The notes: generated by a model from the letters alone, not told the origin. A stretch of 64,000 bases of DNA from Elusimicrobia bacterium RIFCSPLOWO2_02_FULL_39_32 (GCA_001800135.1 MGUU01000002.1:2388-66387), one strand, 5' to 3'. Counted from the stretch's first letter, positions 34,249-53,800 are shown. Numbers and translations are program-made.

Positions 34249-36941
34249 AAACCGAAGAAGAAAAAAGGCTAAAAGAGTCCCGAGATCAAACAGCCCACTG
34301 GAAACGATGGGGCCCATACGTTAGTGACAGGCAATGGGGCACGGTTAGAGAAGATTACAGCGCCCATGGAACGGCATGGGACTATTTTCCCCACGATCAT
34401 GCACGTTCGCGAGCGTACCGATGGGGCGAAGATGGAATCTTTGGCATTTCGGATAATCACCAAAAACTTTGTTTCGCTTTAGCTTTGTGGAATGGGGAAG
34501 ATCCTATTTTAAAAGAGAGATTCTTTGGACTCTCCGGAACCGAAGGGAATCATGGGGAAGACGTAAAAGAGTATTATTTCTATTTAGACAATACCCCCAC
34601 CCATTCCTATATGAAAGCTCTCTACAAGTATCCCCAATCTGCGTTCCCCTATTCTTGGCTCGTACAAGAAAATAGAAAGCGAGGCCGCCAAAAACCTGAG
34701 TTTGAATTGTTGGGTACAGGTCTCTTTAATGAAGATCGGTACTTCGATGTCTCTGTAGAATATGCGAAGAGCTCTCCGGAAGAAATTTGTATTCGCATTC
34801 AGGTAACGAACCGTGGACCGGAAGAAAAAACAATACATCTGCTGCCAACACTTTGGTTCCGCAACACATGGTCGTGGAAAGAAAACTCAAACAAACCACT
34901 ATTGAAAGCAGTGGGAACAAAAGCCAATGTTAAAGTGATTGAATCTGAACATCTCACCCTTGGCAAACGCTGGCTCTACTGCGAAGGAAATCCAGAACTC
35001 CTCTTTACAGAGAACGAAACAAACTTTAGCCGACTCTATGGAACACCTAACCCATCGCCCTATGTAAAGGACGGAATTAACGAAACTATCGTCCAAGGAA
35101 ATAAGAACGCGGTCAACCCGGATCGCACAGGGACAAAAGCTTCCGCCTATTATTTAATCAATGTCGCGCCTCAAGGAACTAAGACGATACAACTCGTTTT
35201 AACTCCTCAAACAAAATCCCGTCCCTTTGGCGCCGCGTTTAAAAAAACTTTTGAACTGCGTCAAAGGGAAGCGGACGACTTTTATAAAAATCTTTGTCCC
35301 TATCCTATGATGGAAGATATGAAGAATGTTCAAAGACAAGCATTCGCAGGAATGCTTTGGACAAAACAATTCTATCATTATGTTCTGGAAGATTGGTTAA
35401 AGGGGGACCCAACTCAACCTGCTCCTGCGCCGCAACGTAAGAACGGCAGAAATGGGGATTGGAAACATCTTTATAGTGAAGATATTCTTTCCATGCCGGA
35501 CAAATGGGAATACCCTTGGTTTGCTTCGTGGGACTTGGCGTTTCACCTTATTCCTTACGCCATGATTGATCCGGACTTCGCTAAACACCAACTCCAATTG
35601 CTTACGCGCGAATGGTACATGCACCCGAATGGGCAAATCCCCGCGTACGAGTGGGCCTTTGGCGATGTGAATCCCCCGGTTCATGCCTGGGCAGCATTAC
35701 GAATCTATCGAATAGAAAAAAAGATGACAGGGAATTCCGACCGACAATTTCTGGAAAGAGTGTTCCAAAAGCTTCTGCTTAATTTTACATGGTGGGTCAA
35801 TAAAAAAGATACCGAAGGAAAAAATATATTTGAAGGCGGATTCCTTGGGCTAGACAATATTGGAATATTTGATCGCAGCAAACCCCTTCCTAACGGAAGA
35901 TTCATTGAGCAGTCGGATGGCACCAGTTGGATGGGCATGTATTGTTTAAATATGCTTCAAATTGCTTTAGAACTTGCAAAAGAAAATTCTTCCTATGAAG
36001 ACATTGCCAGCAAGTTCTTTGAACATTTTCTTTATATTGCCGACGCCATGAACCATCGTGGAGGTGAAGAATTAGAACTTTGGGATGAGGAAGATGGTTT
36101 TTATTATGACGTTCTTCACTATAAAGGCGGACGCCACACTCCCATAAAAATTAGATCCATGGTAGGGCTTATCCCGCTTTTTGCAGTGGAAACTTTAGAG
36201 CCGGAAATCATCAATCGTTTTCCCGGATTCAAAAAGAGAATGGAATGGTTTATTAAAAATAGGCCCGACCTTGCGCGGAATATTGCCAGCATGGAAAAGC
36301 CCGGAATGGGCGAGCGCAGGCTTTTATCTATTGTAAACCAAGAAAAGTTGAAGCGTATCCTCGAAAAAATAGTAGATGAATCAAGATTCCTAGGAAAACA
36401 TGGTGTGCGCGCCGTGTCTAAAATTCATCAGAATAACCCTTATGTTTTTAGCATGGATGGCTTTGAGGCGCGCATTGACTACGAACCTGCGGAGTCGTCT
36501 AGTGGGCTCTTTGGCGGCAACAGCAATTGGCGTGGACCCATTTGGTTTCCTCTAAACTTTTTATTGATAGAATCTCTTCAGAAATTTCATCACTATTTAG
36601 GAAACGAGTATAAAATTGAGTGCCCTTCGGGTTCAGGGAAACAGGCTACGCTTTGGGAAGTGGCCGCAGAAATTTCTCACCGCTTAATTGGTATATTCTT
36701 GAAGGATGAGTCTGGGGATAGACCTGTTTATGGGGATGTAGAAAAGTTTCAAAAGGATCCTCATTGGAAAGATCACATTTTATTCTACGAATATTTTCAC
36801 GGCGACAATGGCTCTGGGATTGGAGCCAGCCACCAAACAGGCTGGACCGGCATCATCGCCAAACTTTTGCAACAGTGCGCAGAATACTGTGGTCAACACA
36901 AACCGCCCCGGCTGTTGAAGGAGTCAAAAATTGAAAACTAA
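34245..36941 (+). CDS. Glycoside hydrolase, GH63-like (alpha/alpha)6-barrel (glucosyl-/mannosylglycerate hydrolase or processing alpha-glucosidase family)
   Basis: Length and motifs ([35 protein letters not shown]) match the GH63/MGH family. It overlaps the upstream gene by 4 nt. Confidence 0.6.
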
Positions 36942-37665
36942 ATTTTTTATTTATGCTGTTGGGGTATTCCTAGCGGGATTCTTTGGGAATGAAAGAGTAT
37001 ATGCAGAATTTGTGATTGATCGTTTTTCTTCTCAAACCGAAAGTAACGGAATTCCCAAGGGTTGGGAAGAGCTTACATTTAAAAAAATCCCAAACCATAC
37101 CCGATATACGGTAGTTCAAGAAGGAAACAATTTTGTTCTTCAAGCGGTAAGTAGAAACTCTTCTTCCGGAATCCTAAAAAAAGTACCTCTAAATCCGAAA
37201 GATTATCCCATTCTTAAATGGCAGTGGAAAGTGGAAAATATCTTAAGCAAAGCAGACGCAAAGAAAAAGTCCGGAGACGATTATCCTGCTCGAATTTATG
37301 TGGCGTTTAAATATGACCCAACCCAAGCGAGCCTGTTAGAAAAAGCAAAATATGGGACGGTGAAAAAACTTTACGGAGAATATCCTCCTCAAGGAGCTTT
37401 AAACTACATTTGGGATAACCGGCTTCCTGTTGGAACCGCTCTGGATAACGCCTACACAGACCGGGCGAAAATGATCGTGGTAGAGAGCGGGCGAGACAAA
37501 ATAGGACAGTGGGTTTCCGAAGAAAAAAATATTTATGAAGATTACAAAAGGATATTCGGTTCCGAACCCCCGGAAATAGAATTTATTGCCGTTATGAGCG
37601 ATACCGATAACACGGAAGATTTCGCTGTGGCTTACTTTGATAACATTGTTTTGGAGAATAAATGA
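36931..37665 (+). CDS. DUF3047-family secreted protein
   Basis: Signal peptide. Conserved YPARIYVAF / NYIWDN blocks. Confidence 0.55.
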
Positions 37666-38366
37666 AAAATAAATTAAATTCCACACTTAAAGGGATCATT
37701 GTTTTTAGCGCAATAGCTCTTTTAATTGTTGCCGCAAATAAATTCAATGTTCAAGAGCTTTTAAAAAATTCTTTAGACAAAATTCAAGAGCTTGGGATAT
37801 TAGGAATAGGACTCTTTATTCTCATTTATCTTCTAGCTTGCGTTTTGTTTCTCCCGGGTTCTATTTTAACTCTGGGAGCAGGAGCGATCTTTGGTGTCAT
37901 CAAAGGTTCCGTTATTGTTTCTTTGAGTTCTACCCTTGGAGCCACTTGCACTTTTCTTATTGGAAGGTATCTTGTAAGACATTGGGTGGAATCTAAAATT
38001 GAAGGGAACCCAAAATTTAAAGCCGTGGACGAAGCTGTGGCAAAAGAGGGGTGGAAAATTGTGGGGCTCACCCGTCTATCTCCTATCTTTCCATTTAATC
38101 TGCTTAACTACGCCTATGGGGTAACCAAGGTAACGATACGGGATTATATTCTTGCATCCTGGATCGGCATGATGCCGGGAACGGTAATGTACGTTTATAT
38201 CGGTTCTCTCGCAGGAGACATAGCCACACTTGGGTCAAGAGCAACCACCGGAGCCGTGAGTTCGGTACAGTGGACAATAAGAATTATAGGATTCATTGCC
38301 ACAGTGCTTGTGACAGTTTATGTAACGCGAGTAGCCAAGAAAGCCCTCAATGAAAAAATTTCTTGA
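37662..38366 (+). CDS. DedA / TVP38-TMEM64 family membrane protein
   Basis: VLFLPGSILTLGAGAIFG motif. Confidence 0.8.
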   Translation: MKNKLNSTLKGIIVFSAIALLIVAANKFNVQELLKNSLDKIQELGILGIGLFILIYLLACVLFLPGSILTLGAGAIFGVIKGSVIVSLSSTLGATCTFLIGRYLVRHWVESKIEGNPKFKAVDEAVAKEGWKIVGLTRLSPIFPFNLLNYAYGVTKVTIRDYILASWIGMMPGTVMYVYIGSLAGDIATLGSRATTGAVSSVQWTIRIIGFIATVLVTVYVTRVAKKALNEKIS

Positions 38367-38416
38367 AAGATGGGAAATTAGTGACTGCCCCCCATTTCCT
38401 AAGGAGGAATTCGTTT

Positions 38417-39955
38417 ATGCCATTAACTAAAGATATTGTAACCATCCCCCCCATGGACAAGCACAACCAAACCCTTGTTTCCAACGTGCATCCATCCAAC
38501 TGGGAAAATCCAACCCCTACAGAAGTCTATAACTTAGTTGTGATTGGAGGAGGTACTGCCGGGCTGGTTACCGCGATTGGGGCAGCAGGTCTGGGAGCAA
38601 AGGTAGCCCTCATAGAAAAACATTTAATGGGCGGAGACTGCTTAAACGTGGGCTGCGTTCCTTCTAAGGCGATAATTCGTTCTTCCCGAGTAGTCGCAGA
38701 AATTCGTGAAGCCTCTTCCTATGGAGTCCGAGTTCCGGATGGGACCGAAGCTAACTTTGCAGCAGTCATGGAGCGGGTGCGTAAGCTCCGAGCTGGCATT
38801 AGCCACCACGACTCTGCGGAAAGATATAAAAATTTAGGTATAGATGTATTTCTTGGGGAAGCGCAATTTAAAACAAGTTATAGCGTTGAAGTAAACGGAA
38901 AAATTCTAAAATTTAAGAAGGCGGTTATTGCCACCGGAGCCAGAGCCGCTCACCCACCTATTCCGGGACTTCCAGAAGCGGGGTTTCTTACTAACGAAAC
39001 TGTTTTCAATCTTACCTCTCTACCAAAAAGATTTCTCATTGTTGGCGCAGGTCCCATCGGCTGTGAGTTAGCCCAAGCATTTAGTCGTTTAGGATCCGAA
39101 GTCCATCTTTTTGAGGCGATGCATGGATTTCTTCCCAGAGAGGATCAGGATGCGGCAGGAATTTTAAAGAATGGTTTTGATAAAGAGAAAATCCATTCCC
39201 TTTGCTGCTGCAATATTTTAAAGGTAGAAAAGCGCGGGATGGAAAAGATTGTACATTTCACGGCGAAACACGAGGGGGAAAAACCTCAAGAAATTGCGGT
39301 AGATGAAATTTTGATTGGGGTAGGACGAATTCCTAATGTAACCGGTTTGAACCTTGAAACCGTCGGAGTAAAATATGATTCGAAGTCCGGAGTTCAAACG
39401 AACGATTATCTCCAAACGACCAACCCCAACATTTATGCCGCCGGTGACATCTGTCTTAAATATAAGTTTACTCACACTGCGGATGCAACAGCTCGCATTG
39501 TGATACAAAATGCTCTTTTCTTTAACAGTAAAAAAGTAAGTTCTCTAATTGTTCCCTGGTGCACTTACACAGACCCGGAAATCGCGCACGTTGGTCTCTA
39601 TGAACAGGAAGCGAAAGAAAAGGGAATTGAAGTTGAAACTTTTACGCGTGAATTTAAAGAAGTGGACCGAGCGATCCTAGACGGAGAAACAGAAGGCTTT
39701 GTGAAAGTGCATGTAAAAAAAGGGACAGATACAATTCTGGGATCCACGATTGTTTCCCGCCACGCGGGAGACATGATTAGCGAAATCACTTTAGCGATGA
39801 CCGCAAAAGTGGGGCTAGGAACCATTGCAAACGCAATTCATCCTTACCCAACACAAGCCGAAGCGATTAAACAGGTTGCAGATGCCTACAATCGTACCCG
39901 ACTCACCCCAACCATTAAAAAAATAATTTCCAATTGGCTTGTCTGGAGAAGGTAG
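38417..39955 (+). CDS. FAD-dependent pyridine nucleotide-disulfide oxidoreductase (class I; dihydrolipoamide dehydrogenase / MerA-like core without the C-terminal Cys pair)
   Basis: GGGTAGLVTA FAD motif. Redox disulfide GGDCLNVGCVPSK. NAD motif and dimerisation domain. RBS AAGGAGG precedes the ATG at 38417. Confidence 0.8.
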   Translation: MPLTKDIVTIPPMDKHNQTLVSNVHPSNWENPTPTEVYNLVVIGGGTAGLVTAIGAAGLGAKVALIEKHLMGGDCLNVGCVPSKAIIRSSRVVAEIREASSYGVRVPDGTEANFAAVMERVRKLRAGISHHDSAERYKNLGIDVFLGEAQFKTSYSVEVNGKILKFKKAVIATGARAAHPPIPGLPEAGFLTNETVFNLTSLPKRFLIVGAGPIGCELAQAFSRLGSEVHLFEAMHGFLPREDQDAAGILKNGFDKEKIHSLCCCNILKVEKRGMEKIVHFTAKHEGEKPQEIAVDEILIGVGRIPNVTGLNLETVGVKYDSKSGVQTNDYLQTTNPNIYAAGDICLKYKFTHTADATARIVIQNALFFNSKKVSSLIVPWCTYTDPEIAHVGLYEQEAKEKGIEVETFTREFKEVDRAILDGETEGFVKVHVKKGTDTILGSTIVSRHAGDMISEITLAMTAKVGLGTIANAIHPYPTQAEAIKQVADAYNRTRLTPTIKKIISNWLVWRR

Positions 39956-39965
39956 TGGTTCACAC

Positions 39966-40463
39966 CTATTTTTCCTCAAAAGAATTTAATCGTTCCAAAT
40001 CTTGAAGATCCTGATATCTTCCTGCAAGTTTTTTTAACTTGATCAGTAAATCTTTAGAAATGAAATAGGCTGGCTCACCAAAAAATTCTCCTAAGACTTT
40101 CTTTCCCCATGCTTCGTCAAATTCTACTCCTTCGAGGTAAGTCATCATTTCTATTTTAAATTCTCCACTCCCAATTTCAATTCTCTGTTTAGGCGCCATG
40201 ATTGTTTCTATAGATAGTTTAGAACCTGAAAATTCCATAACAGCGTTGGAAACGCGTTGACCATTTTCATAAGATTGCCTAATCCAAAAATCCATATCCT
40301 TACTAGAACGAGCAAAATGTCCATGAAACATGGACGCGTGAGCGCCTATAATGAGATACTCTACTTCATGTTTATTCAAAACTTTTAAAAATACGGCGTA
40401 ATCGTCTTGGAGAGGTAAATTTTCCATTCTAAAAAACGAGGAATCTAACCTTACTACGATCAA
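39966..40463 (-). CDS. Hypothetical protein, possible pol-beta-type nucleotidyltransferase
   Basis: G-x(14)-DMD motif (IIGAHASMFHGHFARSSKDMDFW). Confidence 0.4.
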   Translation of the reverse strand: MIVVRLDSSFFRMENLPLQDDYAVFLKVLNKHEVEYLIIGAHASMFHGHFARSSKDMDFWIRQSYENGQRVSNAVMEFSGSKLSIETIMAPKQRIEIGSGEFKIEMMTYLEGVEFDEAWGKKVLGEFFGEPAYFISKDLLIKLKKLAGRYQDLQDLERLNSFEEK

Positions 40464-40620
40464 TACGGATAGATTTAGGATCCATTTTCAATATTCCTAC
40501 ATAACTATTCCGCATAATAAAAGCCCACGATCTTAAAACATCAGAATAAGATTTTTCTTTCAAGTCCTGTGGAGCGTTCCAAGGCACTATTTTTATTTCA
40601 AAGCGACTATCCATAACCAT
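40429..40620 (-). CDS. Small hypothetical ORF overlapping the downstream nucleotidyltransferase-like gene by 35 nt
   Basis: ORF only. Possible antitoxin-like partner or frameshifted N-terminus. Confidence 0.25.
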   Translation of the reverse strand: MVMDSRFEIKIVPWNAPQDLKEKSYSDVLRSWAFIMRNSYVGILKMDPKSIRIDRSKVRFLVF

Positions 40621-40740
40621 TCTCCTTCCGCTTTAAATAGATTACATAAATCATTATAACATGAGAACTTAAGAACTTGCGATCAAAAATTTACAAAAAA
40701 TTTGAAAGAAGGGTTTTGCTAGATTACAATTTTCATAAAA

Positions 40741-40774
40741 TCTGTTTACTATGATTATACTTGTTTACCAAAAA
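40741..40774. repeat. Direct repeat copy 1 (TCTGTTTACTATGATTATACTTGTTTACCAAAAA)
   Basis: Near-identical to 41728-41766. It contains TATAAT on the minus strand. Confidence 0.6.
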
Positions 40775-40852
40775 TCCTGACTTTCGCAAAACTGGGATAA
40801 ATTGTTAGTGCAATGTGCAAATTGCATTGATAAATCAATGGGACATATCTAT

Positions 40853-41119
40853 CTAATATTTTGATTTACGCAGATGCAATTTGATCTGAGATTTTTTTTC
40901 TTGAGAAAGGTTTATGTTAGAGACTAAACTGACTGTATGATCTGCCCAGCCTTTAAGGACTCGGCGCAAAAAATCAAGTTGCCTCATGTAAGTTGGGCAG
41001 ACTTTACACATGGCAAGATGGATTTTAAGAGAAACTTTTTCCCAAAAAGGAATGGCATGATCCATTGATTCTGAGATCAATTTAGAAGCTTCTTCACAAG
41101 AGATCATTCTTAAACTCAT
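40853..41119 (-). CDS. Anti-sigma factor, zf-HC2 (ZAS) type, soluble
   Basis: HLAMCKVCPTY motif. Immediately downstream of the ECF sigma. Confidence 0.65.
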   Translation of the reverse strand: MSLRMISCEEASKLISESMDHAIPFWEKVSLKIHLAMCKVCPTYMRQLDFLRRVLKGWADHTVSLVSNINLSQEKKSQIKLHLRKSKY

Positions 41120-41125
41120 ATTTTT

Positions 41126-41737
41126 CTACTTATTAAACCAATTCTTTTCTAAACAACTTTTAAGGCGGTTGCGAATCCGATAAAGCATGACCCATAGATT
41201 GGTCGTTGTGACATTAAAAATCTTACAAAGCTCGTCGCTTTCCACTTCGCTGATCTCGCGCATGAGGAAAAGTTGCTTTGCCTTTTCCGGCAGATGATCT
41301 AAACAATTTTGAAGAGTTTCTCTAAAGCTAAGTTCCTCTACAATCTTTTCTGGAGAAAGTTCCCATTCTTTCACTAAAATTTTTTGAGGTCGTGGACCAC
41401 TTGACTCCTCATCCGCATTTAAACAAGCAAAACTTGTCTCTTCCAAAGAAATTGTTTTCTTTTGAGATCTAAAATGATCCATGATCTTGTGCTTTAAAAT
41501 TCCAATGAGCCATGTTTTTGGAGAGGATTGGTTACGAAAGGAATCTATAGATTTTAGCGCAGCAACAAATGTGTCCTGCACAAGATCCTCTGCAATAGTA
41601 GAATTTTGAACACGAACTAATGCAAAGCGATACAAAACATCTGAATGGTCGTCAACCCAAAGGTCAAAAAGCGCATTTTGTCCGTTATTATCTATTGAAT
41701 CAGATTGTTTTTGTTCTTCGCCTTCACTCTGTTTCAT
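41126..41737 (-). CDS. ECF-type RNA polymerase sigma factor
   Basis: Region 2 (DLVQDTFVAALKS) and region 4. The track start at 41761 is a TTG. The ATG at 41735-41737 is the likelier start. Confidence 0.85.
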   Translation of the reverse strand: MKQSEGEEQKQSDSIDNNGQNALFDLWVDDHSDVLYRFALVRVQNSTIAEDLVQDTFVAALKSIDSFRNQSSPKTWLIGILKHKIMDHFRSQKKTISLEETSFACLNADEESSGPRPQKILVKEWELSPEKIVEELSFRETLQNCLDHLPEKAKQLFLMREISEVESDELCKIFNVTTTNLWVMLYRIRNRLKSCLEKNWFNK

Positions 41738-41766
41738 GCTATGATTATACTTGTTTACCAAAAAAA
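41728..41766. repeat. Direct repeat copy 2 (TCTGTTTCATGCTATGATTATACTTGTTTACCAAAAAA). It spans the sigma start codon and the divergent promoter region.
   Basis: Identical to copy 1 except for a 4-nt indel. Confidence 0.6.
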
Positions 41767-41787
41767 TATCTGTAAGGAGGAGGAATC

Positions 41788-42021
41788 ATGTCCAAACAGA
41801 ATGCCCCATACGTTATTCAGGAACAACCAGGGAAAAAAGCATGGTGTGCCTGCGGAGAATCGGAAATGCAACCCTACTGCGATGGTTCCCATGCAAGAAA
41901 AAATACAGGAAAAAAGCCTATAGTCGTTGAGATCACCGAAGCTAAAACAGTTGCATGGTGCGGCTGTAAAGAGTCAGGCAATAAACCATACTGTGATGGT
42001 ACGCATGCTAAGCTAAAATAG
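41788..42021 (+). CDS. CDGSH iron-sulfur domain protein (two CDGSH motifs)
   Basis: CACGESEMQPYCDGSH and CGCKESGNKPYCDGTH. RBS AAGGAGGAGG. Confidence 0.8.
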   Translation: MSKQNAPYVIQEQPGKKAWCACGESEMQPYCDGSHARKNTGKKPIVVEITEAKTVAWCGCKESGNKPYCDGTHAKLK

Positions 42022-42036
42022 GAAAGGAATCAAATC

Positions 42037-43059
42037 TTGTCTGAGCTAAGACAAAACTTATGCAGCAAAGAATGGGTGGTGATCGCTCCCAAAAGGAGAG
42101 AAAAGCCTAATGCTCTAAAAACAAAAATAAAGTCAGTCCCTCTTTCCACTGAATCTTATAGTTCAAAGTGCCCATTTTGTCCAAATAATGAGAAACTGTT
42201 CCCATTAGAGGAAAAGATGAGGATTCAGAATTCGAACGGGGAGTGGGTGACGAGAGTCATAGAAAATAAATATAAAATTCTGGACTCCTATGATTCTTGT
42301 CCAACTGTCACACAGCCTTTTGATAAAGAAGGAATCTACCAGAAATTAAAAGGGTGCGGCAGCCACGAACTTGTGATAGATTCTAACCGTCATGACAAAA
42401 ATATTTTGAACATGTCTCCTATAGAGATACGAAATATTCTTGAAGCTGCATTACAAAGGGCAGTTGCGCTTAAAAAAAATCCAAATAACCTCATCACCCT
42501 CATCTTTAAAAATTACGGAGCGATGTCTGGACAAACCCAACTTCATTCTCATACCCAAATTGTAGGAAGTAGGGTTGTGCCTTCCTATATTCGAACGCTC
42601 CTCCATGAAGCAGAAAAACATTTTGATTCATTTGGCAGCTGTGTTTTTTGCGATATGATTGTCTATGAAATAGGCGAGGGGGTACGCTTAATTACTCAAA
42701 ACGAAAATTATGTTTCTTTTGTCCCTTTTGCCGCTGGTACAGAACATGAAACTTGGATCTTACCTAAATTTCATGCTGCTGGCTTAGAAGAGATCGTAGA
42801 AAAAAAATTGGAGGATCTTGCGAAAATTCTACAATCTATCTTTCAACGATTTCATCAGAAGATCGAAAACCCAGATTTTAATTTTGTCATCCGATCTGCG
42901 CCTTATCCTTTATCTAACGTTCCCTACTACCATTGGCACATCCAACTCCTTCCCCGCACAAAAATCATAGGCGGATTTGAGGTTGGAACAAGAATCCAAG
43001 TGAACACGATCCTCCCGGAAGATTCAGCCAAGCTGTTGCGGGAATGCTCTCATTTCTAG
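42037..43059 (+). CDS. GalT-like HIT-family nucleotidyltransferase/phosphorylase
   Basis: CPFCPNNE zinc motif. HSHTQ in place of HPHGQ. Confidence 0.65.
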   Translation: MSELRQNLCSKEWVVIAPKRREKPNALKTKIKSVPLSTESYSSKCPFCPNNEKLFPLEEKMRIQNSNGEWVTRVIENKYKILDSYDSCPTVTQPFDKEGIYQKLKGCGSHELVIDSNRHDKNILNMSPIEIRNILEAALQRAVALKKNPNNLITLIFKNYGAMSGQTQLHSHTQIVGSRVVPSYIRTLLHEAEKHFDSFGSCVFCDMIVYEIGEGVRLITQNENYVSFVPFAAGTEHETWILPKFHAAGLEEIVEKKLEDLAKILQSIFQRFHQKIENPDFNFVIRSAPYPLSNVPYYHWHIQLLPRTKIIGGFEVGTRIQVNTILPEDSAKLLRECSHF

Positions 43060-43136
43060 TTCTAAAAAGTTATCCAACATTTTGCCTTCCTAAAAAACTT
43101 ATCCGACCTTTTGTGAAAAATTTTATAAAATAAGTC

Positions 43137-43168
43137 TTGACTCTATACCATAGTATAGGGTTTATACT
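43137..43168 (+). promoter_or_regulatory. MerR-type promoter: -35 TTGACT, a 20-bp spacer containing the dyad CTATAC-CATA-GTATAG, then -10 TATACT
   Basis: The long spacer carries a perfect 6-bp inverted repeat between -35 and -10, as in MerR-family operators. It lies 24 nt upstream of the merR ATG. Confidence 0.55.
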
Positions 43169-43191
43169 TTAACTGGCGCTATCCTACTTTT

Positions 43192-43611
43192 ATGAATGAA
43201 CTAACCATTGGACAAATTGCAAAAAAGGCTGACGTAAACGTTCAAACGATCTATTTCTATGAACGTAAGAACTTAGTAACGCCCGTGAAACGAAGGGATA
43301 CGGCTATTTCTCATTCTGGTTATAGGATTTATAGTGAAGCAGAGGTTCAAAAAATCCGGTTTATTAAAAACGCGCAAGAGCTTGGATTTAGCCTAAAAGA
43401 AATTTCCGAATTACTTCACTTGCGTATTTCTACAAAAGCTCAGTGTGGTCTGGTTCAGTTAAAAGCTGAAAAAAAACTTAAAAGCATTGAGGAAAAATTG
43501 AAATCTTTAAGTCAGTTAAAAAAAGTTCTAGGAAATTTACTGAATGTTTGCAGGAATCGTAAAACTACAGATGCTTGTCCTATTTTAAAAAGTTTACAAA
43601 AAAGGAGGTGA
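43192..43611 (+). CDS. merR: MerR-family transcriptional regulator with Hg(II)-type metal-binding cysteines
   Basis: N-terminal HTH. Cys85, Cys120 and Cys129 give spacings of 35 and 9, identical to the spacing of the three metal-binding cysteines in canonical MerR. Confidence 0.85.
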   Translation: MNELTIGQIAKKADVNVQTIYFYERKNLVTPVKRRDTAISHSGYRIYSEAEVQKIRFIKNAQELGFSLKEISELLHLRISTKAQCGLVQLKAEKKLKSIEEKLKSLSQLKKVLGNLLNVCRNRKTTDACPILKSLQKRR

Positions 43612-43617
43612 AATAAA

Positions 43618-43740
43618 ATGAAACAGATCATGATAGTTCTGGGATTGCTAACCTTAGTAAGCGGAGGGATTTGGGCATATTCCACTTTAGGTAATGTTTG
43701 CTGCGGCAACCCTTCAGCGCTGTGCTGCCCTTTAAAATAA
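43618..43740 (+). CDS. Unannotated 40-aa single-TM peptide with a CC-x6-CC tail (MKQIMIVLGLLTLVSGGIWAYSTLGNVCCGNPSALCCPLK)
   Basis: AGGAGG RBS 9 nt upstream. Located between merR and merTP. Below the 60-aa cutoff of the ORF track. Confidence 0.55.
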   Translation: MKQIMIVLGLLTLVSGGIWAYSTLGNVCCGNPSALCCPLK

Positions 43741-43754
43741 GGAAGTTTTCTAAA

Positions 43755-44336
43755 ATGAAAAAAATATTTCTTGCAGCGGGAGCAGTTGTATCCTCAGCTC
43801 TGGCGTCGGTCTGTTGTCTAGGACCTATCGTTCTTTTAGGCTTAGGAGTGGGGGGTGTTGGTTTTGCGGCTGTGTTAGCAAAATATCGTCCTCTCTTTTT
43901 AGGTTTGACTTCAATTCTTTTAGGGATTGCATTCTATCTAACCTATAGAAAAAGAGAAGTTGCTTGCGAAGATGGCAGCTGTGAACTTCAATCAGGAAGT
44001 AAACCTATGAAGAGGGCTTTATGGATTGTTACAGTTGCAGCGCTTGGATTCGCTACGTTCCCCAACTGGTCCACTTTTGCTTTGAAAAGAGCTCCTCCGG
44101 TTGAGCAATCAAATATGGAAACTATTCGATTATCCATTGCCGGCATGAGCTGTACCGCCTGCGCTGTGAGCATACAGAAGTCCCTCAAGAAAGTGCCGGG
44201 CGTGGAGATTGCATCCGTAGATTTCGAAAAGTCCGAAGCTGTGGTTCAAATTCACCCGGGAAAAATCGAAAATGATGCGTTGATTCGAGCTGTTCAAACA
44301 GCCGGCAGCTATACAGCAAAAATAAAAGAGAATTAA
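43755..44336 (+). CDS. merT: MerT-MerP fusion: mercuric-ion transport membrane protein fused to an HMA metallochaperone domain
   Basis: ALASVCCLGPIVLLGLG and KYRPLFLG match MerT TM1/TM2. A second Cys pair (CEDGSC) is present. The C-terminal HMA domain carries GMSCTAC. Confidence 0.85.
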   Translation: MKKIFLAAGAVVSSALASVCCLGPIVLLGLGVGGVGFAAVLAKYRPLFLGLTSILLGIAFYLTYRKREVACEDGSCELQSGSKPMKRALWIVTVAALGFATFPNWSTFALKRAPPVEQSNMETIRLSIAGMSCTACAVSIQKSLKKVPGVEIASVDFEKSEAVVQIHPGKIENDALIRAVQTAGSYTAKIKEN

Positions 44337-44347
44337 GGAGAAACTCT

Positions 44348-44815
44348 ATGTCTCAACCCATTCAGTCTCATGAAGAATGCTGCAAGATATCAACCACTTT
44401 ATGCCCCTGCCCAGTCTGCGGGAATATGGGAAGGAGAGTGACGCCTCGAACTCTAGACAACCATGTGCCAAGCCCTTTGAGAGAATCAATAGGAGATGAT
44501 GCCACTTTCTGTACGAATCCTGACTGCAAAGTTGTTTATTGCAATCCCAAAAAGATGGTGGTTCTAAGGGGCGAAACCAAATTCCCTGTAACCATTAAGG
44601 ACTCTGGAGATGATGTGTACGTCTGCTACTGTTTCCAACATAAACGCAGAGATCTGCGGCGGGATCTTAAAGAAAAAGGAACCACAGATATTCCAGATAG
44701 AATCCGAAAGTGCGTTAAAGAGGGTATGTGCGATTGCGAACGTAAAAATCCACAGGGAGCCTGCTGTTTAGGAAACATGACTAACGCCATTAAAAGCATC
44801 CAAGAGGGACGTTAG
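44348..44815 (+). CDS. Cysteine-rich (14 Cys) putative metal-binding protein
   Basis: CC, CPCPVC, CTNPDC, CYC, CDC and ACC motifs. No recognised family. Confidence 0.55.
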   Translation: MSQPIQSHEECCKISTTLCPCPVCGNMGRRVTPRTLDNHVPSPLRESIGDDATFCTNPDCKVVYCNPKKMVVLRGETKFPVTIKDSGDDVYVCYCFQHKRRDLRRDLKEKGTTDIPDRIRKCVKEGMCDCERKNPQGACCLGNMTNAIKSIQEGR

Positions 44816-44823
44816 TTATTTAA

Positions 44824-47199
44824 GTGCAATTTTTAATAATTAAAAATCGTTTTATTTTCATAGGAGCTGTTTTTTTTGTAGGATTGTTCTGGAACTTATC
44901 TTCCAACAATCATGGAAATGGTAAAGACAATCCTGTGAAAACCAATACAGCAAACCTCCTCATTCACGAAAAAAGTCCATACCTTTTACAGCATGCCTAT
45001 AACCCAGTGAATTGGTATCCTTGGGGAGAGGACGCGTTTAAAAAAGCAAGAAAAGAAAACAAACCTATTTTTCTCTCTATTGGCTATGCAACTTGCCACT
45101 GGTGTCATGTGATGGAAAAAGAATCTTTTTCAAATCCAGAGATCGCAGCTGTGATGAACGAACACTTTGTATCCATCAAGGTGGATCGTGAAGAAAGACC
45201 GGATGTGGACAAGATTTACATGACCGCAGCTCATGCCGCAGGATGGGGAGGCGGCTGGCCTTTATCCATGTGGCTTACTCCAGAATTAAAACCATTCTTT
45301 GGTGGCACCTACTTCCCTCCCAATGAGCGCTGGGGCAATCCAGGATTTAAACAAATCTTGCTCCGACTCTCTGAACTATGGAAGACAAAACAAAAAGATA
45401 TAGCCTTAAATGCTGATCGCATGGAACAAGAATTAAAACAATATTCTCAGGTAGAGGGTAGATTTGGCGCGCTTGATACAGAATCTTTGGATAAAGGATT
45501 TGCTGCCTTTAAAGGAGACTTTGTGCCCTCTAAAGGTGGGTTTGGTGGAGCGCCGAAGTTTCCCATGCCAGTTAACCAAAACTTTCTATTGCGTACCTAT
45601 GCAAGAAGCAAGGAGAAAAAAGCGTTAGAAATGATCACGCATACGCTGCATGAAATTTCAAAAGGAGGGATCTACGACCAGATCGGTGGAGGTTTTCATC
45701 GCTATTCCACTGATGAAAACTGGCATATTCCCCACTTTGAAAAGATGCTTTATGACAATGCGCAACTGACAATGAACTATCTTGAAGCCTATCAAATCAC
45801 CAAAGAAAAAGAATTTGCCAGAATTGCCCGGGAAACTTTAGATTATATCTTGCGTGACATGACTCATAGAGAGGGAGGGTTTTATTCCGCAGAAGATGCG
45901 GATAGCCTGCCGACCGAGTTTCAGCGACAGGAGGCGTCGCAGACGCACTCAGCGAAGCAGTCCCCTTTGGGGGCTCGTCCTTTAGGAGGAAGTGCCGTCT
46001 CCAAAGATGTTATAGGCAAGCGGCCGACCGAGTTGAAAGGTAAAATTGAAGATACTAGCCATGAACATGGTTCCGAAGGCGCTTTCTATATCTGGGAAAA
46101 AAGAGAGATTATGGAAATTTTAGGAAAGGAATCTGGTGAAATCTTCAGCTACCGATATGGCGTAGAAGAGAATGGTAACGCCAAGTCCGATCCACAGGGT
46201 GAATTCATAAATAAAAACATTCTTTACCTTGCTCATTCTATTGGAGAAACAGCTAAAAAATTTGGAAAAAAAGAAGAGGAAATCCAAAAAGTTTTAGATG
46301 AATCTAGAGATAAACTTTTGTCCGTGCGTTCTAAACGTCCTAGACCACAACTGGATGATAAAATTCTAGTGGATTGGAACGGACTAATGATTTCAGCTTT
46401 TGCTAAAGCAGCTCAAGTGTTGGCTGACCCAGAATATCTAAAAGCTGCAGAGAAAGCCGCGCTTTTTCTAAAAAACCATCTCTATGATGATAAAGACAAT
46501 CGTCTTTATCATCGCTGGAGGGAAGGAGATAGAAATATTCCTGCTTTATCCTTAGATTATGCGCTTTTAACCCAAGGAGTTATTGATCTCTACGAAACAT
46601 CCCTAAATGTAGAATGGCTCATATGGGCAATTGAACTAACAGAAACAGAAATCAAACTTTTTTATGACAAAGAAAAAGGTGGATTCTTTATGACCAGTCC
46701 TGATCATGATAAGAACCTCCTTGTGCGAGCCATGGATGATACAGACAATGTTATTCCTTCAGAAAGTTCTGTGACTGCTCTTAATCTTTTGCGCTTGTCG
46801 CAATTTACTAGTCAAGAGGAGTATCGAAAAGCAGCAGAAAAAACCCTTATGCGATTTGGAGCCCAGATGAAACAACAACCCAGATCTCTCCCACAAATGT
46901 TAGTGGCCCTAGATTATGCGCTATCTAAACCAAAAGAAATTATTATAGCAGGCGATCCAAAATCAGCTGATACAATTAAAATGGTGCAGGAGGTTCATCG
47001 TCGATTTATTCCCAACAAGATCCTCATGGTTATAGATGAAGGAAAAAATCGTGAATCCCTAACTCATTTTTTACCATTTCTGGAAGGGATTAGACGTATT
47101 AAGGGGAAGTCCACAGCCTATGTCTGCATCAATTACGCCTGTGAGCTGCCAACCAATGATCTTCAAATATTGCAAAAAATATTGGATGAAAATCGCTAA
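44824..47199 (+). CDS. Thioredoxin-domain (DUF255) protein with a C-terminal six-hairpin glycosidase-like domain (YyaL/SSP411-like)
   Basis: [20 protein letters not shown] motif. Contains a low-complexity insertion. Confidence 0.8.
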
Positions 47200-47846: not shown

Positions 47847-50800
47847 TTAGGCTTGCTGCTTATAGAGCTGGGATATTTTTTGTTCTTCATCCTTAGAAGG
47901 CGGTTCCAGTGGAACTCCTTGGATGGTCAGACGATCTCCTATAATTTCCACTCCTCGTTCCCCCTTTAAGCCCTCTGCCCAGTCTCTTAACCCTGAATTC
48001 CTTGCCCCCATCTCTATTAAGCTTAAGCTCACTTCTTCACTAATATCTAGAACTTGCGGAATCAAAATCTTGATATTCCATTCTTGAGCCTCTTTTCCTA
48101 AAAGGTTTGTCCATACCATTGAACTCTTCTCTGTGGTAACAATCCTTAAGGAGAAAGATTCGATCATGGCTATTCTCTTTAACTCAATCACCGCTTCTTC
48201 CGCGCTTTCTAAAATAGCTATTCTCCCCCTTATGCCCAATGCTTTTTCTATCTCTCCAATGGCTGCGCCATTCTTATTCACAAAAAGATACTGAACTTTC
48301 TTAAATGGATGCTTCTTTTTCTCTTCTTCAATCTGCTGAATGGTTCTTAATTGCAGTAAACGATCGTTCTCAGTCTTTGCGCTCTTAAAATCTATCAGAC
48401 AAATCTCTATCTGATTCACCTCTGCGCTCCAAAATTGAAAAACTTTATCTAGCGCAGAGGAATAAGAGAATTCGGTTTGCAATAGAAGTTCCTTAATCTT
48501 ATCTGTTGAATCCCCCAAAGCTTGGGCTACTTGTACAATTCCTTGAAGGTTAGGATTGATTCCCCTTTCAATTCCAGCAAAAGTTTTTGAAACATTCGTA
48601 AGGTAATGAACGATTACGGAAGCAGCTAAGAGTAGAGGAAATGAAATCCAGAAGGGAACAGGAATAATTAGTTGGATAATACCTAAAAGCAAGTTGATGC
48701 GAGCGATCTTTTTTGCAGATTCAAGAAATTGTGGTGGAGCACGGGAATCAAAACGATTAGCGATCCATTCTTTGTGACCTTCCACAAATACGCGCACACT
48801 AGAAAAGAAAGAGACTTGCAGCGCTACTTGAAAATTGCTCCCTGTCAAAATATAAGTTAAAAGCCCGATAGACAACGCACTCAAGCCAAAAGAGATCACA
48901 TCCTCTAACAACGCCCACTTCCGATTGTACTCCTCTAGGGTAAGATCAGGGAAGAAATGTTTTCTAAGCAACTTATATAACCATAACCAGTTGCCGCCAC
49001 CAGAAAAGTCATCAGCGTGATTAGAAGGAAATTCTCCTAATATTTGTTGTATTCTGACCGACTCTACAAGGAATGCGGCATGTGGATAGCTATTTTTAAT
49101 TTCGTCGCATATTTTTGAATAAAGATCATTTTGAGGGGTGTAAATATCAACAGAACTTACTCGCTGAGTCATCACTACATTATTGATCACATCAGCAAAA
49201 AATCTGGCTAGAATTCTCATCTCCCAAGATAAAAGGCGGGATGGAACATTAAATGAAAAAGTGTGAGTATTATCATTAGCGTGAATCAATATTGTTATTT
49301 TTTCATTTTGATCTGGAATCGCTGACTCTGTCAACCTTCTTCCCACATCCACTATGTTTCCAGACTTTTCTACAACGCTAATTGGAAGCGGGCTTCGCCT
49401 GCCATATTTTATCGCCTCATCAATCTCATGAATTTTGGTTTCTAAATCATTGAGACCATCTGGTCCCAATGTTCTAAACGACCACACGCCCAAATTTTCT
49501 GCTGGCTCAACATCTTTTAAATAATCATTCCCAACATAAACAATTTGACTGGGACTCACTCCAAGCGCTGCCAAGACCCTTTCATAAAAAATTGGTTCTG
49601 GTTTAGAGGCTTTTACCCGATCTCTGGTAATAAGAAGCGACGGATCAAAACATTCCTCAATGCCAATGATTTGCAATATTCTTTTAACCACCTCTTTGCC
49701 ACTATTAGTTGCTATCGCTAAAGTATAACCCTGTTGTTTAAGATGGTCTAAGAACTCTTTTAGCTTTGGATTAGGCTTTATCAAATCGAACGGCATATGC
49801 TTCAGTTCTCCTATTTCTTTTCCTCCCCAACTGATGCTGAATTCAAGGGATAATTGGTTGCTGCTTACCGCGCCTTTGTTTGAAAGCTCATCACTTTTAT
49901 TTTGGATTACCTCTCTGGCTGTTTCGATTGAGACATTATTTCTTTCAGCATAGGTTCGTACAAGCGCTTCCCTATACATAGCCTCGAACTCTGGAGCATG
50001 GTAAAGAGTTCCATCCAAATCAAATAAAATCAATTTAATTTTTTCATTGCTGCTGGAATGTGTGTCGGTTCTATCCTGAACTTGACCTTGCGCTTTAGTT
50101 TTTGACTCTTTTAGGAGGGCACGAACAGGAGGATGATTGGAGATACCATCAGCAAGGCTTGCTAGGATTGTGCCGCCGGCAGTGGTACGCTGAATAGCAG
50201 GGTTTAACTCGCGGCCACCCCAATCCTTTTCACGAACCTCATTCACAGCCTTGAGCATATCACCACCAACCAGAAAGACTGGAACTCCGGCTCCCCTTGC
50301 TTTCTCTAGTTTTTCTAAAAGTTGCCGTGTGGCTGTACGCCCGTCATTCCGTTCAAAAACTCCAGTACCGCCATTGGCGATAATCCAGCCATCGCCATTA
50401 TTTTTATGGCGCTCTATGATCTTATCAATCTCTACAAGTATTACATCCAGTGTCTTAGAACCAATGTCTATCGCTTTTTGCTCAATACCAATCCGATCGA
50501 CAAGTTCTGCTGTGTCCTCGTCCCGCACAATGACTCTATGATCTATAGGTAACAATAACTTCATATCGTTCTCTTGCGCTCTCTCTCTAATTTTGGAAAT
50601 AGCTTTTTCAACCTTGAGCGCCGCTTCCCCCTTTGGCAGCCTTGACTTACCTATGGACTGATCTGCCTGTTTAAGGAAAGGATATGCTAAGGCTCCTACA
50701 ACGACCATGATATCCCCAGCATGTTGTTGCCCACTCGACACATATTTGAGCAAATGTTTGTATATCTTATCTGGTTTAGTTCCTCCCCAAATAATAAGTC

Positions 50801-53800
50801 CTGCACCACGAGCTTCCGCTTCAAACTCAAGCTTTTTGTTGACTTCTTTAACAAATGAAATTCCAGCTGCCCGTGCCTCTACAGGAAAATGGTTTACCAT
50901 TCGCACTGTTGCATCCGTGTTGTGACTTTCTATCGCCTCATTAATATAAGCTGCAGGATGACCTAATGCGTTAAGAAGTCGTTCAATAAATTTGTCCTGA
51001 TCTTCAGGAATCGGCTGTGAACCAGAATAATAACTGCTCTCCTCTGGATAGAAACGGCTGTTGGGTAACATAAAGACAATCTTTTTATTTTGATATACCT
51101 TACGCGCAGATTCAATGGCAGCGGGAATTGCGTCAATATCTTCTGGAAGCATAACGATTCCAGCGTCAATGCCTATTTCCATCATACGCTTTTCGGCTAT
51201 TGGAAGCACTCTTCTTTCAACATCAAACTTCTCTCGCGTAACGGAATCATCAAGCTCTTCTTTACTGGGTCGTCCAAGATGGGTACAGATAAAAAGTTCG
51301 TCAAATTTTTCTAAGGCACTTTTAACGGTTTCCACAGTCTGCACGATCTTTGTATCCCCATCTCCCGGATCCTCTCCAATATCCCAGTTAATCTTGAGAA
51401 ATGCAGATATCCCATCAGGTAAATCCTCTATGGTTCGTATTGCCCCGGACTGATCAGATGATGTAAGAAAAATCTTTTCTGATTCTGGAGCTGGAGACGG
51501 TTCGTATGCGTCACCTCCGCCACTGCTTGTGCCAGATATTTGATGAGGACCATGATCCTTTGGTAAATTCTTGTCTAACCCCCGACTCTTTATTTCATTC
51601 TGATAATTCATCCGCCCTAAAGTGAGCGCCATGGAAATCTTAAGATTGACATCTTTTGTTTCATTCAGCCATTCAATAAGCATATCCTTATTGAATAAAT
51701 AATTCCCGCGTTCCGTTTGTATAACTTCAAATTCATCCCACGCGGGCACAATATTTCGTACTTCTAAAACTTGATCTTCACGATCCTTGAATAATTTTTC
51801 AGATTCATGGATGATGGACTCTTCAATGGATTCACCCTTAGTCTTAGCCAAAAATTCTGGACCCCACTTAGGTTTTACAAGTTCCTTAGCGGAAATTTTT
51901 CCGGTTTCCGCTAGATTTAAATTGTTATCTGCGGCATTAGCAGTGCTATTTTCTTGAAACCGCCTCATGAGATACTTGAGCGCCTTCTCGATTCCTCCCT
52001 TGATGACAAAAGGCACATAAGAATAGACGCGGGGAAGAGCCTTATCTTCTCCCCAAAAAAATCTAAAAATTTCCTGAAGAGCTCGTTTCAAATTTTCCGT
52101 CATTCCAAACAAGGATTGAAATTCCAAATGTTGTGGATCCACATCCAATTTCTTTGCCCACAATAGAGCGCTTACAATAGTTCTCGCATCATGACTGGCG
52201 ATCCCGATTCTTTGGATGAGTTTATGTTTTCTAAATAATAGTCGCACTATTTCCAAATAGTTTTCGTCGGTTTTCCAATTTCCCATCCAAACAGGAATTG
52301 GATCACCACGCTCTTCTGCATCGCGAACCTCCTGCGAATGATAAGCTCCCTTAACAGGACGGATGGCGATAGGCATTGGATCCTCAGGATCCTTTTCCAT
52401 CCAGTTTATGAGCCCCTCAACTTCAGCCAATGAATCTACAAAATAGGCTTGTACCACCATCCCGACGTCCGGAATACGCCTGCCGTTTTCTCGCACCATC
52501 TTCAAATTTGGATCTAACTGATTTTCAAGCTCTTCCAGAACAGTCTGGATTACTTCATTAGCAACATCACGATAAATGTACTCTTCTTTATCAACCCAGA
52601 CAATTGCTCCCATCTGTCCTGCTCTTTTAACTTCACGCACTTTTGCCACTATCTTTTTGTAATTCTGAACAGCCAAATTGAATCCTTCTCTTCTCACAGA
52701 TTCAACTTCACTATCCAGCCAACTTTGCGGTGTAAGATTAGTTACCTTTGAGGAAATATTAGGTTCTAGACCATAGGACGCCATTTTTTCAATAAGATCC
52801 ACACAAGCTTGAGCATTTTCCATAGCTTCTTGTTCCGTATGAATTCCTTCACCCAAAATGTCTGCTATAGATAAAACAGGTCTGGACTCGGACTTCCCAT
52901 CTCTTACAACCCGTATCCCTTTAGCCGCCATTTCTCGTATAACTTTTTCTACCGCCTTTTCTTGTGAGAGATTTTTCATGGATTTAAGTGCTTCATCCTC
53001 AGTGTCTCCCACAATATACTGCGCTGTCATAAAAAACAATAACTTGCGCAGCCATTCCTTAAAAATTTCCGGTGTCCTATCAGACTGGATGATTTTATCA
53101 GCCAAATCTACACTCCCAGTTAAGAGTTTTGCAAACCAAGGGGTGGGGTACATTTTTAAAATGAACTTTGTGATTCCGTTTCTTAAGAGCTCTAGTACAT
53201 TTAAGTTCCGTTCTCTTTCTTGTCGGATTAATTTGGATGCTTCCACGAGTCTTTCTGTCTCACGAACGATTTCAGACTCCGGTATTCCCCATCCGCTATT
53301 ATCCTCTTCTATCTCGTCTCCATTTTGGAAATGCGTTTGGGGTTTACTAGGTTGAAAACGGGGACGTTTCACATTTCCCTCTAAATTAGAAACGTCCTTG
53401 TTTTTCCTTAATATGTCACTCAAGTCTGTTGGGCCCAGAGCAAAAAATAGATTGGCGAGGATCGCCGCAACTGCTGTAGGTATGGTTAGCCAGTGAAATC
53501 CAGCCACTGCAAAGATGGCCACAGCCGCAACTAAATTTGCATAAATGCCTGAACTTCCATGAGCTCCCGGAACTGTTAAGCGAAAACCCAAAACCTTTTG
53601 CAAACCCGGCGGCCAATCATCAAAAGCAATCACGCCTTTTGTGTCAAACTTGGGCCAACTCCATTCTTTAAATGGTTTTTTCCAGTTGACCTCAATCATG
53701 TGGCCAACCTCATTGATAACAATGGCAAGAAAAACAGCGGAAATTGCGCTGCCCCAAAGAGAATTAGCGTCAACTACAATGCCGAAAAATCCTGCTAAAA

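Follow-up and report, generated by a model that had tools for sequence, protein, structure and literature searches.

What fills the short gap between a merR-type regulatory gene and the transporter gene behind it in an uncultivated Elusimicrobia bacterium, and does it belong to the metal-handling system in which it sits? The question is raised by a 64,000-nt stretch of Elusimicrobia bacterium RIFCSPLOWO2_02_FULL_39_32 (GCA_001800135.1, MGUU01000002.1:2388-66387), the whole of which is here called the window, where an open reading frame (ORF) of 40 codons lies between merR and a gene encoding a MerT-HMA (MerTP-like) fusion protein. Judged from its conservation, this ORF is a genuine small protein-coding gene, and three different operon layouts link it genetically to MerT/MerP-type modules. 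Its product is the founding member of an undescribed family of small proteins in a system of a known kind, like a mer accessory but outside the described families, and it probably helps to handle a thiol-loving metal such as mercury.

A 40-codon gene between merR and merTP

The ORF starts with ATG and runs from 43618 to 43740 on the plus strand, occupying the whole 143-nt gap between merR and the MerT-HMA gene in a tightly packed polycistron; its translation is MKQIMIVLGLLTLVSGGIWAYSTLGNVCCGNPSALCCPLK (40 aa). A Shine-Dalgarno sequence, AGGAGG (43603-43608, plus strand), is embedded in the last codons of merR, whose TGA stop lies at 43609-43611, and is separated from the ATG by a spacer of 9 nt (43609-43617). 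At the other end, the TAA stop (43738-43740) overlaps the AAGGAAG Shine-Dalgarno sequence of the next gene, which begins with the ATG at 43755. The original prediction, made from the DNA alone, had pointed to a perfect ribosome-binding site (AGGAGG, 9-nt spacing) driving a 40-aa ORF, and both can be read directly from the sequence.

The same prediction described the product as one transmembrane (TM) helix followed by two vicinal cysteine pairs. The pairs, C28C29 and C36C37, are indeed present, 6 residues apart within the core CCGNPSALCCP (C28-P38; 43699-43731) and followed by a basic C-terminus, and this core is invariant in the family as CCGxPxAxCCP. The helix, however, is an interpretation: residues 1-20, MKQIMIVLGLLTLVSGGIWA (43618-43677), could form a single membrane anchor but could equally be a cleavable Sec signal peptide, with possible cleavage after IWA. 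As for the description of the peptide as unannotated, no source names it, but some metagenome gene callers had produced an anonymous product of 39-42 aa; in one NCBI metagenome-assembled genome (MAG; L213) and in two Logan contigs (L082 and L210; the prefix L numbers the loci fetched for comparison), the peptide has no gene call. The gene is a concrete illustration of how a small but functional gene can be missed by more than one annotation pipeline.

Conservation of the peptide in diverged hosts

The outcome of the search for relatives depended strongly on the method. A word-indexed protein search with the single peptide matched only an identical copy in an ENA contig, and on its own would have wrongly implied that the peptide is not conserved, whereas exhaustive HMMER searching followed by a profile search recovered its relatives. 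The exhaustive search yielded three peptides of 39-42 aa (E = 7e-12 to 1e-7), and the profile search added more. Two short contigs with MerT genes 70-77% identical (L082, L083) have a homologous ORF at the same site, and six-frame scans of the fetched loci uncovered further copies without a gene call in L003 and L213, both of them NCBI Elusimicrobia MAGs, and in L210-L212. A degenerate DNA pattern for CCGxPxAxCCP was also run against metagenome contigs; of the matches listed, L100 and L181 alone belonged to the family, each carrying a peptide identical to P0132, and nearly all of the others listed were off-frame, high-GC noise. The identical copy in the ENA contig lies in L001, which matches the window at 100% over 1720 nt. 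Altogether, the search of other genomes that the original prediction had proposed returned 11 distinct homologous sequences in 18 of the 217 fetched loci, all from MAGs and metagenomes.

The boundaries of the family are sharp. Its members score at least 73 bits against the family hidden Markov model (HMM), and the best non-member among 36,182 six-frame segments scanned reaches 24.6 bits. All members found so far come from Elusimicrobiota MAGs or from metagenome contigs without an assignment; a tblastn search of 72,556 plasmids found nothing similar (best E = 3).

The members are 39-42 aa long and share a basic N-terminus, a hydrophobic segment of ~17 residues usually ending in GG[IV]WA, a short variable linker and the CCGxPxAxCCP core followed by K/R, with the consensus MKKxLLALALLTxxSGGVWAYxxxICCGNPSAPCCPLKK. 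In the alignment of the 11 sequences, M1, G17, C28, C29, G30, P32, A34, C36, C37 and P38 are invariant. A GGAGG-type Shine-Dalgarno sequence precedes ten of the members; in L210, the site is weaker (AAGGTGG-like) and stands before what appears to be a GTG start.

Pairwise comparison by the Nei-Gojobori method gave pN values of 0.07-0.39 and pS values of 0.36-1.0, mostly 0.5-1.0 and therefore saturated (0.03 for the near-identical pair L087/L089); dN/dS, where computable, was 0.08-0.42, mostly ~0.1-0.2. The family is thus under purifying selection on its amino-acid sequence, and what is conserved is the frame, not the DNA. Conservation of the DNA but not of the ORF had been named in the original prediction as the pattern that would speak against a gene, and the reverse is found: the protein is conserved, synonymous sites are saturated, and the GC content of the host contigs varies between 39 and 67%. 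It is this conservation of the amino-acid frame across diverged hosts that identifies the gene as real.

The sequence had also been called distinct from the known mer accessories, and this was borne out, as Pfam, NCBIfam and PDB profile searches of the window peptide gave no match and placed it in no described family. Other members have weak profile matches confined to the N-terminus, namely, to LPAM_1 (four members, E = 8e-4), to residues 1-18 of the PhrK precursor and to the MerP profile (best member E = 0.034, 14.7 bits, positions 1-39 only, against a TIGR02052 cutoff of 92.55). In the literature, we found no description of such a peptide, and no source names these proteins.

Linkage to MerT/MerP-type modules in three operon layouts

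The peptide gene lies in soft-metal clusters of three arrangements. In layout (a), shared by the window, L001, L082, L083 and L210-L212, the order is merR, peptide, merT(P) and a gene for a CopZ-N-terminal-type protein (zfCopZ), whereas in layout (b), found in L003, L085 and L213-L215, the peptide gene comes last, after merR, merTP and zfCopZ. Layout (c) consists of genes for an extracytoplasmic function (ECF) sigma factor, a multi-TM zf-HC2 anti-sigma factor, the peptide, a 124-aa membrane protein, a 174-aa protein and a Phenol_MetA_deg outer-membrane barrel; it is complete in L086-L088 and L100, and L089 and L090 share it up to the ends of their contigs. Upstream of layout (c), two loci (L087, L090) carry a zfCopZ gene, or a MerT-HMA gene together with a methyltransferase gene.

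The two proteins that follow the peptide in layout (c) resemble MerT and HMA proteins. The 124-aa membrane protein has no Pfam match but is collinear with MerT, including LLCCALP in the place of VCCLGP and the loop cysteine pair (hhalign E = 1e-3), and the 174-aa protein combines a signal peptide with an HMA domain containing CPFC (92% probability). Because the layout (c) proteins resemble MerT and HMA, the order of peptide, MerT-like protein and HMA protein is found with two different transporter lineages.

Within layout (a), the transporter itself varies. MerT is a stand-alone protein without HMA in L082 (805-1140, 111 aa) and L083 (367-693, 108 aa), whereas in the window and in L002, the closest relative of the window locus, it is fused to HMA, which indicates that the HMA domain was gained or lost within this clade. 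With MerT lacking the HMA domain in L082 and L083, the peptide is the only candidate there for an exported thiol component. Among loci whose MerTP is at least 56% identical to that of the window, about 7 of 10 have the peptide; in the distant Elusimicrobia loci L005-L016, the family HMM detected none.

Two further observations concern these contexts. The zf-HC2 anti-sigma factor encoded upstream of the peptide (816-1655 in L086, with equivalents in L087, L088 and L090) is a multi-TM protein with QCCFLP in a hydrophobic stretch, that is, with a CCxxP motif as in MerT (CCLGP); the motif also occurs in MerF. This anti-sigma factor may be a membrane thiol metal sensor that controls the ECF sigma factor.

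Separately, two Bacteroidetes MAGs carry ORFs of 54-55 aa between merR and merTP (L019 3745-3912; L023 3716-3880) that are conserved between the two, one of them being MKHKLMLILSILGLSLSAIAFTASKPESKQGNCPLCSGQRPSCSNSNCITSCCK. Like the peptide, these ORFs combine this operon position with a signal-peptide-like N-terminus and a Cys-rich tail, which in their case ends in CCK, but their sequence is unrelated, with six cysteines (CPLC...C...C...CCK) and no match to the family HMM or to Pfam. They appear to represent another exported Cys-rich micropeptide that has come to occupy this operon position independently, and they may point to a broader group of exported thiol micropeptides that has been overlooked in the mer-like operons of uncultivated bacteria.

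Signal peptide or membrane anchor

Which side of the membrane the cysteines face depends on how the N-terminus is read. MerP offers a point of reference, since its 19-residue presequence is removed. The MerP precursors in the fetched proteobacterial loci (91 aa, with a presequence of 19-20 residues) start MKKLFASLALAAVVAPVWA|ATQTV, and mature MerP has 72 aa (PMC5500634). The family consensus at the putative site, MKKxLLALALLTxxSGGVWA|Y, agrees with the MerP signal peptides in length, in charge and in its [IV]WA end, and the mean Kyte-Doolittle hydropathy over 19 residues is 1.4-2.1 in the family and 1.5-1.7 in the MerP presequences. In five members, no more than 18-19 uncharged residues separate the basic residues on either side; the hydrophobic segment has a conserved S/T/A-G-G, and its usual ending is [IV]WA. 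The only profiles that the family N-terminus matches, all weakly, are those of signal peptides (LPAM_1, PhrK 1-18 and MerP 1-39).

An AlphaFold2 model built from a 7-sequence alignment has a helix at residues 2-30 (pLDDT, the per-residue confidence, 60-78) followed by a coil tail, with a mean pLDDT of 68.6, and lacks the power to discriminate between topologies. Taken together, the N-terminus appears to resemble a cleaved MerP signal peptide as closely as it does a membrane anchor, although this comparison is uncertain. We consider it moderately probable that the Cys tail is periplasmic, whether cleaved or anchored, and rather unlikely that it is cytoplasmic. A lipoprotein was considered as well and rejected; the LPAM_1 matches exist, but there is no lipobox cysteine, the residue before the first cysteine being I, V or K.

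A proposed thiol station on the mer relay and its rivals

In classical mer systems, Hg(II) moves from thiol to thiol, that is, from the CxxC of MerP to the CC pair of MerT helix 1 and on to cytoplasmic thiols (PMC5500634, PMC3466566). Vicinal CC pairs are characteristic of the Hg(II) carriers MerT and MerF and have been reported to favor Hg(II) (PMC5500634). Against this background, the reading that we prefer, and to which we give a little less than an even chance, is that an exported or anchored thiol peptide captures a metal like Hg(II) and passes it to MerT. Placed second in a MerR-controlled operon (merR, peptide, merT-HMA, zfCopZ), the peptide gene would be co-induced by a thiophilic metal, and the N-terminus would direct Sec export. 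The Cys-rich tail would then come to lie on the periplasmic face, either as a free peptide of ~20 residues after cleavage at [IV]WA or, if uncleaved, tethered to the membrane. There, the four thiols could capture Hg(II) or a similar soft metal and hand it to the vicinal cysteine pair in MerT helix 1, as MerP does in the classical systems. The peptide would thus be an extra thiol station on the mer relay, most likely a periplasmic scavenger or donor like MerP or, alternatively, a membrane-tethered cytoplasmic acceptor.

A narrower version of this proposal, possible but in our view doubtful, is that the mature product is the periplasmic peptide of ~20 residues YSTLGNVCCGNPSALCCPLK, acting as a minimal, fold-less replacement or booster for MerP that supplies MerT-type importers with Hg(II) or another soft metal. 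If this is true, YSTLGNVCCGNPSALCCPLK, with its two vicinal Cys pairs, would be the smallest known dedicated metallochaperone.

Several observations weigh against a periplasmic thiol peptide that serves a mercury transporter. Vicinal thiols could oxidize in the oxidizing periplasm. An R or K often follows at position +2 of the putative cleavage site (YR, SR), which disfavors Sec export; L003 lacks the VWA motif, and the Cys tail is as basic as the N-terminus. About 3 in 10 of the close MerTP loci do without the peptide, and so does L002, where merR abuts merTP and exactly the segment corresponding to window positions 43623-43738 is missing, with the rest of the operon kept. Since L002 lacks the gene, it must be dispensable, an accessory rather than a core component. 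The operon (merR, peptide, merT-HMA, zfCopZ, DUF255) contains no MerA and, consequently, offers no obvious detoxifying endpoint for imported Hg(II). Finally, none of the MerR, MerTP and MerT matches reaches its curated equivalog cutoff, so mercury need not be the metal; it could be Hg, Cd, Pb or Cu.

The architecture of L002 points to loss of the gene. This locus (JACPBF01), from a groundwater Elusimicrobia MAG, is syntenic with window positions 39257-44802 at 83-93% nucleotide identity. In the window, a 31-nt translation-initiation region is repeated (repeat D1, 74% identity, spacing 137 nt), with an upstream copy at 43598-43628 and a downstream copy at 43735-43765, which holds the Shine-Dalgarno sequence and ATG of merTP, both on the plus strand and flanking the 137-nt unit missing in L002. 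L002 keeps a single hybrid copy, in which positions 3985-4005 align to both copies of the window. The duplicated initiation region and the hybrid copy are most parsimoniously taken as the signature of a repeat-mediated deletion in L002, and loss there is likelier than recent gain because L082, L083 and L210, which are more distant, keep the gene at this site.

The same repeat could be invoked for an altogether different reading, in which the 5' end of merT was partially duplicated in tandem and the ORF is a decaying remnant of this event, open by chance. The initiation repeat around the unit absent from L002 and a weak alignment resembling the MerT N-terminus are compatible with this, but the gene is conserved in distant hosts and at different positions with dN/dS of ~0.1, and its retention at the same site in L082 and L083 makes loss in L002 more parsimonious than recent gain. 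Conservation under selection in distant hosts in effect refutes such a chance remnant, which we regard as very improbable; the functional gene may still have arisen originally by partial duplication of merT or merP. Just as improbable is a Cys-codon-rich upstream ORF serving as a cis-acting leader peptide, or an RNA leader, that tunes merTP translation without a trans-acting product. The tight packing between merR and merTP, the duplicated initiation regions and the four Cys codons would suit a leader, but the gene follows the last operon gene in L003, L085 and L213-L215 and lies upstream of a different gene in L086-L090, and this variable position rules out a cis-acting leader; in addition, the whole amino-acid sequence is under purifying selection. 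An RNA element was rejected as well, since the region has no Rfam match and no unusual fold (z = 0.71).

The remaining alternatives accept a functional peptide but assign it another place or task. It could be an uncleaved single TM helix with a cytoplasmic Cys tail, a miniature counterpart of MerF, that takes metal from the loop Cys pair of MerT and passes it to the zfCopZ-type chaperone, or joins the translocation path of MerT. Consistent with this are the two vicinal Cys pairs with a basic tail after the second, the CCxxP motif shared with MerT helix 1 in this operon (CCLGP), the report that both Cys pairs of MerF face the cytoplasm (PMC5500634), tail positive charges that equal or exceed those of the N-terminus in most members, the single long helix (residues 2-30) of the AlphaFold2 model and the presence of a gene for a cytoplasmic zfCopZ partner in most peptide-bearing loci. 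An hhalign alignment to MerT also leans this way by its E value (0.0045), but its probability is 7.7%, BLASTP finds nothing, and no MerF, MerE or MerT HMM matches. Moreover, the 18-19 uncharged residues of five members are short for such a helix and are broken by the conserved SGG, the N-terminal MKK would need to cross the membrane, and the confidence of the AlphaFold2 model is low. We consider this arrangement unlikely.

More improbable still, in our estimate, is an exported, disulfide-stabilized peptide that transfers no metal and serves as an envelope-stress or redox signal for the ECF/anti-sigma pair, or as a secreted signaling or antimicrobial peptide. The peptide gene is the first one after the ECF sigma/anti-sigma pair in L086-L088 and L090, with the same peptide in L100, the CC-x6-CC spacing could form two cross-disulfides, and the gene is dispensable in L002. 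The N-terminus also weakly resembles those of Phr pheromone precursors, but this match is limited to the signal peptide; most of the sufficiently long contexts also hold MerT-like, HMA or zfCopZ genes, and the peptide gene has no maturase, exporter or receptor gene as a consistent neighbor. We also rejected a ribosomally synthesized and post-translationally modified, or radical-SAM-modified, Cys-rich precursor, as no adjacent maturase, protease or exporter gene was found in any context examined.

The surrounding operon and neighboring genes

The operon is preceded by a predicted MerR-type promoter/operator (43137-43168, plus strand) composed of a -35 element TTGACT (43137-43142), the dyad CTATAC-N4-GTATAG (43143-43158) and a -10 element TATACT (43163-43168), with a 20-nt spacer. 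The dyad is perfect and was detected both as a stem and as inverted repeat I8, and the whole stretch is 100% identical in L002. Long spacers with a dyad are typical of MerR-family promoters, and by this analogy, 43137-43168 would function as the MerR operator. The first gene (43192-43611, plus strand) encodes a MerR-family regulator of 139 aa (PF13411, PF09278) whose best NCBIfam match, TIGR02051 MerR, scores 123.4 bits, below the cutoff of 150.85. Its best solved relative is Tn501 MerR (5crl, E = 4e-26), and all three cysteines of the query align with cysteines of Tn501 MerR, which are its Hg-liganding residues. However, relatives from the CadR/PbrR/CueR group of Cd, Pb and Cu sensors match as well, the Cd and Pb sensors sharing the Cys triad, so the metal of this regulator is not fixed.

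Beyond the peptide gene, the MerT-HMA fusion (43755-44336, plus strand; 193 aa; PF02411 and PF00403) matches NF033556 MerTP at 106.6 bits, below the cutoff of 180, and has SVCCLGP in its first TM helix, a loop Cys pair (C71/C76) and GMSCTAC in its HMA domain; C20 and C21 of MerT helix 1 are invariant in the MerTP alignment. It is followed by the zfCopZ gene (44348-44815, plus strand), which encodes a Cys-rich putative Fe-S/Zn metallochaperone of 155 aa (PF18423 zf_CopZ, 49.5 bits; NF047645, 103.1 bits, cutoff 100). A DUF255 thioredoxin-domain protein of 791 aa with a hydrophobic N-terminus (44824-47199, plus strand; PF03190, 255 bits) may be encoded by the last gene of the operon, although this linkage is weak; the gene begins 9 nt past the zfCopZ stop, and the downstream region of L002 has no DNA-level conservation of it. 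After the DUF255 gene comes a single ORF of 2449 aa on the minus strand (47847-55196). The peptide family helps to characterize the merR-merTP-zfCopZ clusters of groundwater Elusimicrobiota, which lack MerA.

A flavin adenine dinucleotide (FAD)-dependent oxidoreductase gene in the window (38363-39955) was considered as a candidate merA and rejected; its product scores 390 against a MerA cutoff of 454.45, matches NF004991 instead and lacks the C-terminal CC pair. This gene belongs to a trio (36931-39955) that also encodes a DUF3047 protein and a VTT/DedA protein. In independent contigs (L216 213-2489; L217 520-2082; L213 7255-8576), merTP-zfCopZ again has a VTT and oxidoreductase gene pair, or a Pyr_redox gene, no more than a few kb away, which hints that such genes may be linked in function to the mer-like operon without a reductase.

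Two other stretches of the window, 40853-41761 (minus strand) and 41788-42021 (plus strand), located 1.4 kb upstream of merR, hold the genes for an ECF sigma factor (PF04542, PF08281) and a small soluble zf-HC2 anti-sigma factor next to the divergently transcribed gene of a two-domain CDGSH iron-sulfur protein. Farther upstream, an 838-aa protein (30450-32966, plus strand) fuses a radical-SAM domain to an ArsM-like arsenite methyltransferase domain, with all matches below the equivalog cutoffs, and its C-terminus likewise holds a pair of vicinal Cys pairs.

Comparison with known mer proteins

The original prediction likened the peptide to MerE and MerF, and this holds for its position as a mer accessory but not for homology, size or number of helices. 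MerE, a protein of 78 residues, is likewise a small Cys-containing mer accessory. It has two TM helices (PMC3466566) and a single Cys pair, located in the first TM region (PMC5715351) and given as a CxC-type motif elsewhere (PMC5500634). Neither the Pfam MerE model nor that of MerT matches any member of the family.

MerF (NF033565) is closer in its motifs, being a small mer-operon protein with two vicinal Cys pairs, the first in a CCxxP context and the second near a basic C-terminus. It has 81 residues, two TM helices and Cys pairs ~50 residues apart and is sufficient on its own for Hg(II) uptake (PMC5500634, PMC3466566), whereas the peptide has 40 residues, one hydrophobic segment and Cys pairs 6 residues apart. 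With the MerF model (cutoff 50 bits) included, the window peptide has no NCBIfam match at E <= 10, and MerF is absent among the matches of the 9 members scanned. MerT helix 1 (PF02411) shares with the peptide a [VI]CCxxP motif after an N-terminal hydrophobic stretch, and the weak hhalign alignment described above places M1...CCGNP of the family in register with M1...CCLGP of MerT, but MerT differs from the peptide in having three TM helices and, in the cytoplasm, a second Cys pair. As BLASTP of the peptide against MerTP gave no match, we treat homology to MerT helix 1 as a lead only.

In MerP (TIGR02052), the likeness lies in the neighborhood and the N-terminus: MerP adjoins MerT, starts with MKK and a hydrophobic stretch in a VWA-type presequence, and works by thiol chemistry. 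The mature MerP is an HMA fold of 72 residues with GMTCxxC, whereas processing would leave ~20 residues of the peptide, with two CC pairs and neither an HMA fold nor a CxxC. Mer-type transport is the textbook model of a thiol-to-thiol metal relay, and the peptide, made synthetically, would offer a tractable means of studying the hand-off of Hg(II) and other soft metals. The mer carriers known so far contain 2-4 TM helices or else an HMA fold (PMC3466566); beside them, a protein of 40 residues, conserved and equipped with two vicinal Cys pairs, would be a much smaller addition to the relay.

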